Part shown: piece by piece, positions 28,271 through 31,225 of the stretch
Layout of the letters: each line of letters begins with the position of its first letter
How positions within the stretch are numbered: the stretch's first letter is position 1
Origin: Candidatus Nitrosopumilus koreensis AR1
Lineage (GTDB): Archaea > Thermoproteota > Nitrososphaeria > Nitrososphaerales > Nitrosopumilaceae
Direction: 5' to 3'
NCBI RefSeq assembly: GCF_000299365.1
Contig: NC_018655.1
Coordinates: 390,001-422,000, forward strand
Length of the DNA: 32,000 nt
Made by a program: the position numbers and the translations under genes
The notes under the pieces: model-generated
The model's database searches: none
What the model was told of the DNA's origin: nothing
What the model saw: the letters and a program-made list of their open reading frames with translations, nothing else

Positions 28271-28639
28271 TTATTTTCTTAAAACATATTTCCAACTTTT
28301 TTCTTCTTTAATTCGGTTGAGCAATTTCTGTTTTAGTGTCAAATCCACTGATAATGCTTTAGAAATTGATGGATTGGGATAATGATATCCCTCCCTTTTT
28401 AATTCTGTTACGATTTCATTCAAAGCCTTTGGATAATTAAAAAAACCATTTCCGATTAACAATCTTAGACCTCCTCTTAATCCTGTATGTTTGGTCTCTT
28501 TTTTGTACTTTTTTTCTTGAAAAACCTCTTTTTCCAATTTACTGACTCTTCTCTCTAATTCTTCGAATCTGTCTTCATTCATGTATGATCTAGGCATATC
28601 TAGTAAATTAATGTTATTCATATTATGTTTACCCAACAA
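28271..28639 (-). CDS. Small winged-helix-like protein (GLRGG...WKYVLRK family, copy 1)
   Basis: The probable start is ATG at 28621 (the track uses TTG 28639). The C-terminal about 70 aa is paralogous to the 29509-29838 ORF. Coiled-coil N-terminus. Confidence 0.6.
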   Translation of the reverse strand: MLGKHNMNNINLLDMPRSYMNEDRFEELERRVSKLEKEVFQEKKYKKETKHTGLRGGLRLLIGNGFFNYPKALNEIVTELKREGYHYPNPSISKALSVDLTLKQKLLNRIKEEKSWKYVLRK

Positions 28640-28916
28640 ACTTTTGATAAAATAATGTGACTAAGAATTTGATATTTTTAGAAAGTAACTGCTATCTTTT
28701 CTAATTTGATAATTTTTACCTTTATTACTTTATATAGTAAATATTTTTTATTAGAAATGATTTCTATGCTAAGTTTTTTTTATAGGCGTTTTGTAATGTC
28801 AATTATTTGTAAGGTACATAACATATGAATAAAAATAATTTCCTCTTCTAAATATAGGCGTAAAAAAGAATATTACTAATAACAACGTTTTTAAAGTAAC
28901 AATATGAATCACTAAT

Positions 28917-29519
28917 ATGGCTAACGGGCTAAAGGTGGAACTTGACGTAGATGTAAAAAAAATTAGAGAGTTAATTGACTATGCAAAAAAATCAGTTGAA
29001 AATGAAGATGATGAACTAATCAAAAATGAATCATACAAAATCATTCTAAAATTATTACTTGATAGATATTTATCTTCAGAATCCATCCCACAAGGAGCAC
29101 CAAAAATTGGTAGTAATTTAACAAAAAAACAAAATGAATTAGCTAACTTATGTTCAATTACAATCTCTGAATTGTATGATGTTTTTAAGTTTCAAGACAG
29201 CTCTGTGAATTTGGTTGCTGCTATTCAAGGAAGTGACTCTTTCAAACATCTTGTGGGTACACAATGTTATCTTGCTGCATTGGAAGTTGTATATGAAAAA
29301 GATTGGGTAAGTTCTAACGATGTTACTGAATGTATGAGATCTATGGGTGTCAAAGATTTATCTAATCTTGCTACAAACCTCAAAAAACATTCGGACATTT
29401 TTAGAATTAGTGGCACACGTGGTCATAACAAATACAAATTGACTAGCGGTATGGGTAGAAAATCTGCTTTTGATTTTATTCATAAATTAGGTAAAGGTGA
29501 AAGTTTACATGAAAATTAG
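28917..29519 (+). CDS. Two-domain protein: N-terminal helical domain + C-terminal winged-helix-like domain (paralogue A)
   Basis: Aligns along its length with 29866-30459. ESYKIILKLLLDRYL aligns with EAFKIILNNLSNTTL. NLATNLKKHSDIFRISGTRGHNKYKLTSGMGRKSAFDFI aligns with NLSTTLQKKKYHEFIISKGKGKSKEYRITTKGIQKAFETL. Confidence 0.65.
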   Translation: MANGLKVELDVDVKKIRELIDYAKKSVENEDDELIKNESYKIILKLLLDRYLSSESIPQGAPKIGSNLTKKQNELANLCSITISELYDVFKFQDSSVNLVAAIQGSDSFKHLVGTQCYLAALEVVYEKDWVSSNDVTECMRSMGVKDLSNLATNLKKHSDIFRISGTRGHNKYKLTSGMGRKSAFDFIHKLGKGESLHEN

Positions 29520-29838
29520 AATCCAACTAATTGATGATGCTGGTGTGGAACATTCAGGTGAAATTGAATTAAAATCAACTACTGTTTACTAAAAAAAAAT
29601 CCAAAAAAAACAATCATTTAATGATTATTCTGGATTAAAAGGTGGAATTAATTTTCTCATAGATCATAATTTCTTTGATCAATTAAAATCCTCTAAAGAT
29701 GTTAACGAAGAATTGAAAAAGGAAAATTATTTTCATACTATTCAATCTGTTGATAAAAGATTGAGGTTTTTGGTATCCTCTAAAATACTTACGCGGATCA
29801 GGGATGAAGGTAAATGGAAGTATGCTTTAAGAAAATAA
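29509..29838 (+). pseudogene. Small winged-helix-like protein copy 2, interrupted by an in-frame TAA
   Basis: ATG 29509 overlaps the end of the upstream gene by 11 nt. There is an in-frame TAA at 29590-29592. Downstream, in the same frame, KKIQKKQSFNDYSGLKGGINFLIDHNFF...ILTRIRDEGKWKYALRK aligns with KKYKKETKHTGLRGGLRLLIGNGFF...LLNRIKEEKSWKYVLRK of copy 1. Confidence 0.6.
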
Positions 29839-29865
29839 TAATAAATGATGGTGTGAAAAATTAAC

Positions 29866-30459
29866 ATGGACAAAATTGATGAAATTAAACAGAATATTGC
29901 AATTGCTATAGAATCCACTCAATCTATTGAGGATGAGAAATATCGTATAGAGGCTTTTAAGATAATTTTGAATAATCTGTCAAATACCACCTTGAAAACA
30001 GGCTCAGGAACAGGCTCAGGAACAGGCTCAGGAACAGGCTCAGGAACAGGCTCAGGAACAGGCTCAGGAACAGGCTATGATGATGACCTTTTGAGTATAT
30101 TATCTGAAAAAAGTGGATTGGACAAAGAATCTTTATTGAATGTTTTAACATTTGAAAAAAATCAATTAATTTTACTTAGAGTAAAAGGTGATTCTATAGC
30201 TGACCAATACTTCTATTGTTCATTAATGATTCTTGCATTTTGGAAAATTTGTAAAAATATGGACTATGTTTCAAATGTGAAACTTGGCTTTCCAATGTCT
30301 AGATATGGAATCAATACAAGGAATTTGTCTACTACATTACAAAAAAAGAAGTATCATGAGTTCATTATTTCAAAAGGAAAAGGAAAATCAAAAGAGTATC
30401 GTATTACGACTAAAGGAATCCAAAAAGCTTTTGAAACTCTTTCTGAACTTTCACAATAG
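29866..30459 (+). CDS. Two-domain helical + winged-helix-like protein (paralogue B) with (GSGT)6 linker
   Basis: See the paralogue A alignment. The linker between the domains is replaced by a perfect repeat. Confidence 0.65.
   Translation: MDKIDEIKQNIAIAIESTQSIEDEKYRIEAFKIILNNLSNTTLKTGSGTGSGTGSGTGSGTGSGTGSGTGYDDDLLSILSEKSGLDKESLLNVLTFEKNQLILLRVKGDSIADQYFYCSLMILAFWKICKNMDYVSNVKLGFPMSRYGINTRNLSTTLQKKKYHEFIISKGKGKSKEYRITTKGIQKAFETLSELSQ
30001..30076 (+). repeat. Perfect 12-nt tandem repeat ggctcaggaaca x 6 (+ggct), in-frame, encoding (GSGT)6
   Basis: Six identical units at 30001-30072 plus 4 nt of a seventh. The antisense ORF 29957-30151 (LFLS repeats) is its shadow. Confidence 0.95.
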
Positions 30460-30461
30460 AA

Positions 30462-30965
30462 ATGACTCTCGATTCAAAAATAATTGTATCACAATTAAAT
30501 AAATTAGGCGTAAGTAAAAGTCTTCTCAACAATTGGTTGGATGAATACAAAAAAATTAAAAATGAATTTCTAAAACAACAATGGAATACTTGTATTTCAA
30601 ACTGTGGTCTTTTCTCTGAGTATACTGTCGCAATATTGAAAGAACTATATGAACAATCTCCGATAAATCAAAATAATATTCATTTTGATAATTTTTATAA
30701 AGATTGTATACAAAAATCTAAACCTAATCCTGAAGATGAAATATTGTTATTAGCTGTTCCACATGCGGCAAAAACAATTTACACAATTCGTAATAAAAAA
30801 AAAGGTGCACACGTGAAAGCTATTGATCCTGATTATGTTGATAGTTTATTTGTAACTTCTCTTTCAGATTATATTCTTTCCCAATTTGTCTTGTTAAAAT
30901 GTAAAGGTACTCAAAATGATGTTGCAAATTTAATTCAAAATATTATAGAAAAAAAATTCCTTTAG
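30462..30965 (+). CDS. Helical protein with HEPN-like Rx6H motif, apparently truncated at an A8 run
   Basis: Starts 2 nt after the upstream stop. TIRNKKKGAHV (30789-30812) fits the HEPN Rx4-6H pattern with a polar residue after the R. The ORF ends 9 nt after the run a49-a56 (30949-30956), while the -1 frame stays open into the next ORF. Confidence 0.5.
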   Translation: MTLDSKIIVSQLNKLGVSKSLLNNWLDEYKKIKNEFLKQQWNTCISNCGLFSEYTVAILKELYEQSPINQNNIHFDNFYKDCIQKSKPNPEDEILLLAVPHAAKTIYTIRNKKKGAHVKAIDPDYVDSLFVTSLSDYILSQFVLLKCKGTQNDVANLIQNIIEKKFL

Positions 30966-31027
30966 TTGAAGAATTTGAAGATGGAACAATAATCATTCAT
31001 AGAAAATTAAAAAATCCTGATCAAATT

Positions 31028-31225
31028 TTGATAACTCTCTATGTAAAAGGTAAACGTATGACTAAAAATGAATTAATTTCTACACTTCAAATGAGTTATG
31101 AGCAATTAGCCACTTCTGCCTTGAGAAGTTTAAAACAAAAAAATTTTGTACATGAAAGTGATTCAGGTTATGTAATAACACGTTCAGGAATAGATAAAGT
31201 TGAAAAAATTGTTCAAAACATATGA
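31028..31225 (+). CDS. Winged-helix (MarR-like) segment, probably the C-terminal part of the 30462 gene
   Basis: MTKNELISTLQMSYEQLATSALRSLKQKNFVHESDSGYVITRSGIDKV is wHTH-like. This frame is open back to 30920 and has no ATG before 31058. One extra A in the A8 run, or a -1 slip, would fuse it to 30462-30956. Confidence 0.5.
   Translation: MITLYVKGKRMTKNELISTLQMSYEQLATSALRSLKQKNFVHESDSGYVITRSGIDKVEKIVQNI

Follow-up and report, generated by a model that had tools for sequence, protein, structure and literature searches.

Introduction

Few defence or addiction systems are recognised in ammonia-oxidising archaea or in most other uncultured archaeal lineages, whose mobile elements carry genes that are mostly labelled 'hypothetical'. 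Here we analyse one set of such genes, at positions 28271-31225 of a 32,000-nucleotide stretch of Candidatus Nitrosopumilus koreensis AR1 (contig NC_018655.1, positions 390,001 to 422,000 of the forward strand; henceforth the window). The genes belong to the integrated element NitKor-E2 and to three protein families that we call S, L and EF: S1 and the pseudogene S2 code for small proteins, L1 and L2 for paralogous winged-helix proteins, and EF for a protein that joins an all-alpha, putatively HEPN-like domain to a C-terminal winged helix-turn-helix (wHTH). The described systems that come closest are the type IX retrons, the HEPN toxin-antitoxin and abortive-infection (Abi) proteins, and the small winged-helix regulators.

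In the type IX retron (Retron-Kva2), a WH protein composed of helical bundles and a helix-turn-helix acts together with msDNA (multicopy single-stranded DNA) to encircle and silence the HEPN active site, whose release leads to abortive infection (bioRxiv 10.64898/2026.07.14.738597). The AR1 locus resembles this system in that a gene for a predicted HEPN-type nuclease stands beside one for a ~200-aa helical and winged-helix protein, and in that the best PADLOC matches of the EF winged helix are retron WH proteins, with WH_III-A matched in 24/40 members. It differs in that the HEPN-like domain carries a fused winged helix of its own, in that up to four wHTH partners accompany it, and in being archaeal; the generic winged helix is all the sequence homology to the retron proteins that could be shown. 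Moreover, the segment from 28.0 to 32.0 kb holds no open reading frame (ORF) of reverse transcriptase size or likeness, Rfam gave no match to a non-coding RNA in 27900-32000, and no extra large gene is present in the operons that we inspected.

The HEPN toxin-antitoxin and Abi proteins, among them HEPN-MNT and AbiJ, carry the signature R-x4-6-H with a polar residue after the R (Anantharaman et al., 2013; PMC3710099). With these proteins EF shares a predicted all-alpha domain, an R...H motif followed at the R by a polar residue, the pairing of such a domain with a variable sensor or DNA-binding domain, a patchy distribution, and neighbourhoods of mobile-element and defence genes. By contrast, EF has no MNT partner and no HEPN match in Pfam or PADLOC, its R-x6-H lies at the limit of the motif, and its wHTH partners are paralogous. 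The small winged-helix regulators (SSV1 F-93, STIV F93, Sso10a and MarR/ArsR-type proteins) superpose on the C-terminal domains of L1 and EF with template-modelling (TM) scores to the target of 0.5-0.76. These regulators are single-domain proteins of ~90 aa, whereas L also has an N-terminal helical hairpin and a further helix/beta-hairpin unit, EF also has a catalytic-looking domain of 160 aa, and the proteins studied here are encoded in fixed multi-gene operons.

The DNA itself has been reported before. NitKor-E2 was listed as a cryptic integrated element at genome positions 399943-423283, that is window 9943-33283, in the supplementary files of Krupovic et al. (2019, Environ Microbiol, PMC6563490), with the 11-nt attachment (att) sequence TGCTCCCACCG and tRNA-Glu(CTC) as target (supplementary file 3); NKOR_02310, for instance, was published at genome 400016-401554, which corresponds to window 10016-11554. 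NKOR_02385, NKOR_02390, NKOR_02395 and NKOR_02400 are among the listed genes and bear only the labels 'uncharacterized' (arCOG10601) or 'hypothetical'. The element is not discussed in the main text of that paper, and the paralogy, the E/F fusion, the S2 pseudogene and the operon family described below are unreported there.

Results

One operon with a divergent small gene

We conclude that the locus is one operon, L1-S2-L2-EF, together with the divergent gene S1, and that it represents, in partly decayed form, a conserved modular operon family of archaea. Its features are as follows.

28271-28597, minus strand: S1 (NKOR_02385, arCOG10601), small protein, divergent from L1
28640-28916: AT-rich intergenic region from which S1 and the L1 operon diverge
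28917-29519, plus strand: L1 (NKOR_02390), L family; helical hairpin, linker, helix/beta-hairpin unit and C-terminal winged helix
29509-29838, plus strand: S2, S-family pseudogene overlapping L1 by 11 nt, with one in-frame TAA at 29590-29592 and no frameshift
29866-30459, plus strand: L2 (NKOR_02395), L-family paralogue whose linker is a (GSGT)n repeat
30462-31225, plus strand: EF, a single gene for a ~255-aa protein with an all-alpha N-terminal domain, a beta-hairpin and a C-terminal wHTH
30462-30965, plus strand: E half of EF (NKOR_02400)
31028-31225, plus strand: F half of EF as an ORF, its frame open from 30941
31226-31887: repeat-rich non-coding region of ~660 bp with enriched motifs, between EF and the integrase gene

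The protein of 28917-29519 is identical to NKOR_02390 (100% identity). The operon is tightly packed, S2 following L1 with the 11-nt overlap, L2 following S2 after 27 nt and EF following L2 after 2 nt, so that the layout given in a preliminary description of this DNA, made from the letters alone, holds. The same description could name no family for the proteins, and indeed S, L and E match none in Pfam, NCBIfam, PADLOC or PHROGs, while F alone gives weak wHTH matches. The divergent layout of S1 and L1 is also found in contig L001 (from a Nitrosopumilus metagenome-assembled genome), and we presume that 28640-28916 holds promoters or operators. In L001 the S(-)/L(+)/S(+) arrangement of S1, L1 and S2 recurs as a unit, and L2-EF is a separate conserved gene pair; the locus is therefore not the tandem duplication of a two-gene module that had been suggested.

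E and F are halves of one gene

E and F had been described as a HEPN-like protein fused or adjacent to another wHTH, which is correct in outline, E and F being one gene. The split comes from a 1-nt deletion, an A missing from the A8 run at 30949-30956. Adding one A to this run yields a 254-aa EF protein that has 42 full-length homologues of 250-265 aa (the best with 75% identity over 99% of the length) and that aligns across the E/F junction with an intact 256-aa protein of locus L006 (E 4e-9). The frameshift is also present in L008, which comes from another assembly (GCA_000328925.1). The preliminary description had counted two disrupted genes; these are EF, with its 1-nt deletion, and S2, with its in-frame TAA. 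The S2 orthologue of L001 is free of interruption, and its overlap with the L1 orthologue is likewise 11 nt. From the nonsense codon in S2 and the frameshift in EF, the AR1 copy is probably inactivated.

The N-terminal domain of EF contains the motif Y-T-I-R-[S/N]-K-K-x-x-A-H-x-K-x-I-D-P-x-x-x-D, which is near-invariant among 117 non-identical sequences: the R is kept in 116/117, the H in 117/117, the two lysines in 116/117 and 113/117, and the final D downstream in 117/117. Its R-x6-H fits the HEPN signature, including the polar residue after the R. An AlphaFold2 (AF2) model of an intact homologue, P0034 (predicted local distance difference test score, pLDDT, 88), consists of an all-alpha part (residues 1-162), a beta-hairpin and a wHTH (169-257). 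In Foldseek searches the winged helix matched MepR, Sso10a, ScaR and SSO2273, and it alone has sequence relatives with solved structures; among the matches outside the wHTH, the recurring recognisable fold was HEPN (1wol, TM to target 0.59; 2hsb; 4nqf; Csm6 5yjc). Motif and model hint weakly at a HEPN-like fold for the N-terminal domain, and we call it HEPN-like rather than HEPN because no HEPN sequence profile matches.

The L and S families

L1 and L2 are paralogues along their length, as had been proposed by eye. In a pairwise comparison they align end to end with 25% identity (E 0.002), and a hidden Markov model (HMM) of the L family, built from 114 independent members with L1, L2 and their close relatives left out, matches both over their full length (E 2.3e-61 for L1 and 3.6e-41 for L2). 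The family is large: searching exhaustively with a profile, we obtained 358 clusters (50% identity) at E <= 1e-3, of which 167 have E <= 1e-10. The L2 orthologue in locus L009, which lies directly upstream of EF, matches the L-family HMM with E 2e-53.

In the AF2 model of L1 (pLDDT 92), residues 13-55 form a helical hairpin, which is followed by a linker, a small helix/beta-hairpin unit (64-99) and a winged helix (107-192). Foldseek searches with it against the PDB and BFVD returned generic winged-helix proteins only, at E about 0.01-0.3, including MarR/ArsR proteins, SSV1 F-93, the SSRV1 regulator, the Cdt1 C-terminal domain and the Orc/Cdc6 winged helices. We found no sequence relatives of L with solved structures, and L1 shows no similarity to known Rep proteins. 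As an observation apart, the (GSGT)n linker of L2 is encoded by a perfect 12-nt tandem repeat, AACAGGCTCAGG, in ~6 copies at about 29997-30068. The linker of the L009 orthologue is non-repetitive, and the repeat in L2 is therefore a recent expansion.

S1 and S2 are likewise paralogous (37% identity over 86 aa, E 6e-17). S1 has a coiled-coil-like N-terminal segment and a conserved C-terminal domain, GLxGGIRxLI...ELKREGYH...ILNRIK..WKYVLRK. Its mechanically called ORF extends to 28639, with a TTG start, but its homologues are 105-110 aa long, and we therefore favour the ATG at 28597 as the start. We found 28 homologues of S, all from Nitrosopumilus-type sources and none with a solved structure. 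S1 is assigned to arCOG10601, annotated only as 'uncharacterized protein' (PMC6563490, supplementary file 1), and arCOG10601 is not mentioned in any paper found by our literature search. A wHTH nature of S is suggested by its sequence pattern. Its membership in the common wHTH module described below was considered and rejected, as hhalign comparisons with the other families gave nothing convincing.

A modular operon family across archaea

For a census of the operon we took EF homologues from species-representative genomes and from 80 metagenome loci, classified 83 non-identical EF loci, and assigned the upstream genes with HMMs for L, S and two further families, M and N. EF is always the last gene of its operon and is preceded by 1-4 small wHTH-type genes of the families L, M, N and S, with gaps that are typically -4 to +17 nt. 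In 72/83 loci such a gene lies directly upstream of EF on the same strand, belonging to N in 35/83, to L in 20/83, to an L+M fusion in 10/83, to M in 5/83 and to S in 2/83; the position is held by an unclassified gene in 2/83 loci, no gene is present there in 4/83, and a contig edge intervenes in 5/83. Typical operons are N-L-EF, M-N-EF and (M+L)-EF; locus L024 has S-EF, and locus L025 has M-L-L-S-EF, which is close to the layout in the window. The lineages that carry EF include Nitrosopumilus, Bathyarchaeia, Archaeoglobaceae, Hecatellales, Thermoplasmatales, Promethearchaeota and Nanoarchaeota.

The M proteins (~135 aa) are TrmB-like (Pfam TrmB, E 2.3e-5 for one member), and the N proteins (~150 aa) have a beta-hairpin N-terminus and a winged helix. 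Profile comparison by hhalign relates M to the C-terminal half of EF with a probability of 94% and E 1.6e-7 over 111 columns, while the pairs L-EF, N-L and N-EF gave E about 4e-4 and M-L 2.6e-3. By these alignments, a related module of beta-hairpin and winged helix is common to M, L and N and to EF in its C-terminal half. Members of the families are also found fused to one another, L with S in P0135, P0166, P0191 and P0211, and M with L in P0187 and P0205.

In one protein the module bears a different head. P0088 consists of a CAP12/Pycsar-type TIR domain (PF10137, E 1.3e-28) fused to the C-terminal module of L, and its gene is preceded on its contig (L104 1-1453) by an L gene (E 1.4e-51). By its predicted domains this locus mirrors the L2-EF layout with TIR in place of the HEPN-like domain. 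To exchange the enzymatic head while the sensor or adaptor module stays constant is a typical trait of conflict systems (PMC3710099). Two further fusions are mentioned as observations: in P0190 and P0210 the C-terminal module of L is joined to C-terminal domains of ~165 aa, in one of which R...N..AH and in the other HDRYII...GHS can be seen by eye. A phmmer search of the PDB gave no match for these domains, and their by-eye resemblance to DUF4145-like HEPN and PLD-like domains is not used here as evidence.

The operon occurs in varied surroundings. L009, a 4.9-kb metagenome contig, carries an integrase, an RHH protein and M-L-EF, with the 13-nt direct repeat CCTTCGGGTCCGC at both ends (1-13 and 4866-4878). 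Its integrase is unrelated to that of NitKor-E2 (no BLASTP similarity), and the contig has the appearance of an entire mini integrative element that carries another integrase. Other EF neighbourhoods contain transposases and an AAA_5 protein (L010), a serine recombinase (L011), an OLD-family AAA_15+TOPRIM protein (L020), DUF6339 (L022), or an AbiEii-like nucleotidyltransferase with TerL and a YQBQ-like protein (L015 and L018). There is no recombinase near the EF operons of L014, which has hydrogenase-like genes, and L021, which has mutL-like and thiolase-like genes, a pattern that a self-contained module would be expected to show. A viral origin was considered and rejected: IMG/VR viral contigs yielded no relatives of EF, S or L, and PHROGs gave no match for them.

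Some of these neighbourhoods deserve a remark of their own. In the two Bathyarchaeia genomes (L015 8818-10182 and L018 2086-9907), M-N-EF stands beside a T4-type terminase large subunit, the YQBQ-like protein and an ABC-type ATPase, a setting that looks provirus-like from its gene content. At L011 9199-10904 (identical in L012), two proteins of ~256 aa are encoded directly downstream of L-EF and upstream of the serine recombinase; they have no Pfam match, but show R-N-x4-H-like and N-A-A-V-H motifs and may be further HEPN-type proteins.

Proposed function

A major question is what the EF operons do. We propose, with a probability of roughly 0.45, that L1-S2-L2-EF is a toxin-antitoxin or abortive-infection-like module composed of a HEPN-type RNase, EF, and of wHTH proteins that serve as its inhibitors and autoregulators. 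EF would dimerise through its N-terminal domain, and the co-translated wHTH partners would bind it, probably together with DNA, via the related winged-helix modules, with L2 as the putative direct partner. Such binding would block the active site of EF and at the same time autoregulate the operon, until the nuclease is freed, either because the partners are lost or by a signal that comes from an invading element or from one that has been lost. Carried on an integrative element, the module would stabilise that element or exclude competitors. The co-directional L2 and EF genes, with minimal spacing and an upstream gene of DNA-binding type, have the gene layout of type II toxin-antitoxin systems. 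The toxicity of EF, its RNase activity and its neutralisation by L2 are predictions that we draw from sequences and structural models.

Several points weigh against this proposal. EF has a DNA-binding domain of its own and all its partners are of DNA-binding type, so that a purely regulatory complex would look the same. The R-x6-H spacing of EF is the outer limit of the canonical Rx4-6H, the HEPN matches in Foldseek have E about 0.6 and are not significant, and no HEPN profile matched EF in Pfam (42 members at E <= 0.1; 3 members at E <= 5) or in PADLOC; the best match to a profile of the HEPN clan was PF05168, with E 0.081, for the L006 homologue. Precomputed matches of three members to Abi_C (PF14355) could not be reproduced at E <= 5, and this assignment was dropped. 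S is not demonstrably related to L, M, N or EF by profile comparison. Finally, the frameshift in EF may be a homopolymer sequencing error or a polymorphism, because a public protein record of Nitrosopumilus sp. SJ (P0035), which starts at residue 59 of E, reads in frame through the junction ('...IEKKIPLVEEF...'); homopolymer lengths in the AR1, L008 and SJ assemblies may be unreliable, and decay would then be firm only from the stop codon in S2.

The main alternative, which we regard as unlikely, if well worth weighing, is that the genes form a regulatory or maintenance module. All the wHTH proteins, EF included, would then be transcription factors or nucleoid-type proteins that act on the repeats and on the S1/L1 promoter region to steer integration, excision and expression, and the N-terminal domain of EF would serve in dimerisation or ligand binding. 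Every protein of the cluster carries, or probably carries, a winged helix, EF matches no nuclease profile, and the structures nearest to L1 are those of small transcription regulators, archaeal and viral (SSV1 F-93, an SSRV1 regulator, MarR/ArsR). The cluster also adjoins the integrase gene and the motif-enriched region of 660 bp, which the preliminary description had likewise pointed out as an iteron-like non-coding neighbour. In this region (31226-31887) CCATCGAT occurs 4 times, every copy lying within it, vs 0.44 expected, ATCGATGG(T/A)AT-type motifs are present in both orientations, and there are many copies of CATCTTTT/AAAAGATG; judged by pattern, the motifs could be integrase arm sites, operators or an origin. 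Against a purely regulatory role, however, the operon also occurs away from an integrase or comparable repeats (L014, L021), and L009 has the cassette but none of the motifs of 31226-31887. The invariant constellation of R, H, K and D in 117 sequences from distant phyla would be unusual for a mere dimerisation domain, and a TIR effector substitutes for the N-terminal domain of EF in the same gene arrangement.

Less probable still, indeed improbable, is a replication module of a small integrative plasmid-like element, in which an L-type protein would be an iteron-binding initiator and 31226-31887 the origin. The two tandem helix/beta-hairpin units of L1, and its weak fold matches to the Cdt1 C-terminal domain and the Orc/Cdc6 winged helices, would suit such a function, but these matches are generic (E about 0.1-0.2). 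The region contains three imperfect 35-nt direct repeats, spaced 43-45 nt apart, beside its many short motifs; these repeats are, however, poorly conserved (63-77% identical), and the motifs are missing from L009. wHTH proteins have been suggested as initiators of small cryptic elements without a known Rep (Krupovic et al., 2019; PMC6563490), and the 4.9-kb L009 likewise lacks a recognisable Rep. Yet the gene directly upstream of EF is L or L+M in 30/83 loci and N, M or S in 42/83, which leaves no constant candidate initiator; the chromosomal contexts without recombinases (L014, L021) make a replication function awkward; and the TIR fusion points to a role in conflict. A last reading, that no specific system is involved and that an AT-rich spacer merely contains ordinary host genes or ORFs arisen by chance, has as its sole point the disruption of two genes in AR1. 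It is refuted by the size of the L family, the family HMM matches and the gene order kept across phyla, and is further opposed by homologues with strong E-values (28 for S, 358 clusters for L, >117 for EF), confident AF2 models, a patchy distribution and the position inside a published integrated element.

A wider extension of the toxin-antitoxin or abortive-infection-like proposal is possible, if doubtful. The L/M/N/S-EF operons as a whole would then form a family of defence or addiction systems, spread across the archaea and hitherto unrecognised, in which paralogous winged-helix adaptors and DNA surround an effector fused to the same winged-helix module (usually HEPN-like, sometimes TIR, possibly others) and hold it inactive until a trigger arrives, a logic like that of type IX retrons without reverse transcriptase or msDNA. 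As far as we found, the integrated element alone has been published, whereas the operon family appears to be undescribed, as do EF as a fused gene, its motif, the kinship of M, L and N with one another and with the C-terminal half of EF, and the fusions; our literature search returned no matching 'HEPN-wHTH' architecture. The locus thus offers a handle on four linked protein families that are unnamed in Pfam, NCBIfam, PADLOC and PHROGs. Should the HEPN-type reading of EF be true, they would represent a new architecture, a suicide RNase controlled by paralogous DNA-binding adaptors, and would account for some of the 'dark' genes carried by mobile elements of thaumarchaeal, bathyarchaeal and Asgard lineages; should it be wrong, they are still widespread, modular and unannotated DNA-binding proteins of archaea. 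The AR1 copy, being probably non-functional, matters as an example and not as an active system.

The locus within NitKor-E2

The preliminary description had considered that the segment might be part of an integrated plasmid or provirus and had pointed beyond position 32000 for integrase, Rep or tRNA genes. It does belong to an integrated mobile element, and both an integrase gene and a tRNA are present in L008, an identical contig that runs past the end of the window (window coordinate = L008 coordinate + 20461). The features that bear on the boundaries are as follows.

9943-9953: left att copy of NitKor-E2, TGCTCCCACCG, the sole exact copy in the window, the same as the published att and the true left boundary
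31888-32000, minus strand: 3' end of the NitKor-E2 tyrosine integrase gene, which runs to window-equivalent 33228 (L008 11427-12767, minus strand)
33273-33347 (window-equivalent): tRNA-Glu(CTC), outside the window, just past the integrase gene

The integrase matches Pfam Phage_integrase (E 4.6e-5) and the PHROG 1 integrase (E 1.3e-12), and its gene adjoins the tRNA target. The 11-nt repeat is present at window 9943 and again at the 3' end of tRNA-Glu. Taking the extent of NitKor-E2 from its published delineation, the segment 28271-31225 belongs to the integrase-proximal ~4 kb of this known 23-kb element and is not a separate element.

An element boundary at 28.0 kb, as had been surmised, is not supported. 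A separate small element from 28.0 to 33.3 kb was considered and ruled out: near 28 kb there is no copy of the 11-mer with <=2 mismatches and no repeat of the tRNA 3' end, and the element starts at 9943. The observation behind the surmise was sound, the last 4 kb being both AT-rich (GC 0.284 in 28-32 kb vs 0.344 +/- 0.021 in the rest of the window) and dense in homopolymers (18 A/T runs of >=7 vs 2-8 in the other 4-kb bins). Low GC as the mark of an element boundary was ruled out as well, in that the cassette genes have a GC of 0.26-0.32 and the integrase of the same element has 0.379, and in that in L009, too, the cassette is low in GC and the integrase next to it high. It is the cassette genes that have low GC as a property.

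Other genes in the window were noted in passing. At 17187-20530 (minus strand), inside NitKor-E2 and in a further patch of low GC (0.29-0.31), the gene for an 818-aa protein with a caspase-like CHAT domain (PF12770, E 1.8e-48) overlaps the end of one for a 294-aa protein of unknown function; this pair may be a second conflict-type module of the element. The left end of the element (10016-12820, minus strand) encodes side by side a tyrosinase and a glyoxal-oxidase-like protein (Glyoxal_oxid_N, GO-like E-set and Kelch), a cargo pair of copper oxidases that is unusual for an ammonia oxidiser. Two overlapping genes at 21253-22666, both arCOG03134 HTH regulators in the published table and the first matching HVO_A0261_N and FilR1_middle, lie upstream of genes for two large secreted proteins, one of 1110 aa and one of 474 aa that has HpiC1-like and TSP3 repeats. 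Close to the left boundary but outside the element, 1362-6976 is occupied by a polysaccharide gene cluster, with genes for two polysaccharide deacetylases, for a UDP-glucose/GDP-mannose dehydrogenase and for a glycosyltransferase of the GT2 chitin-synthase-like kind.

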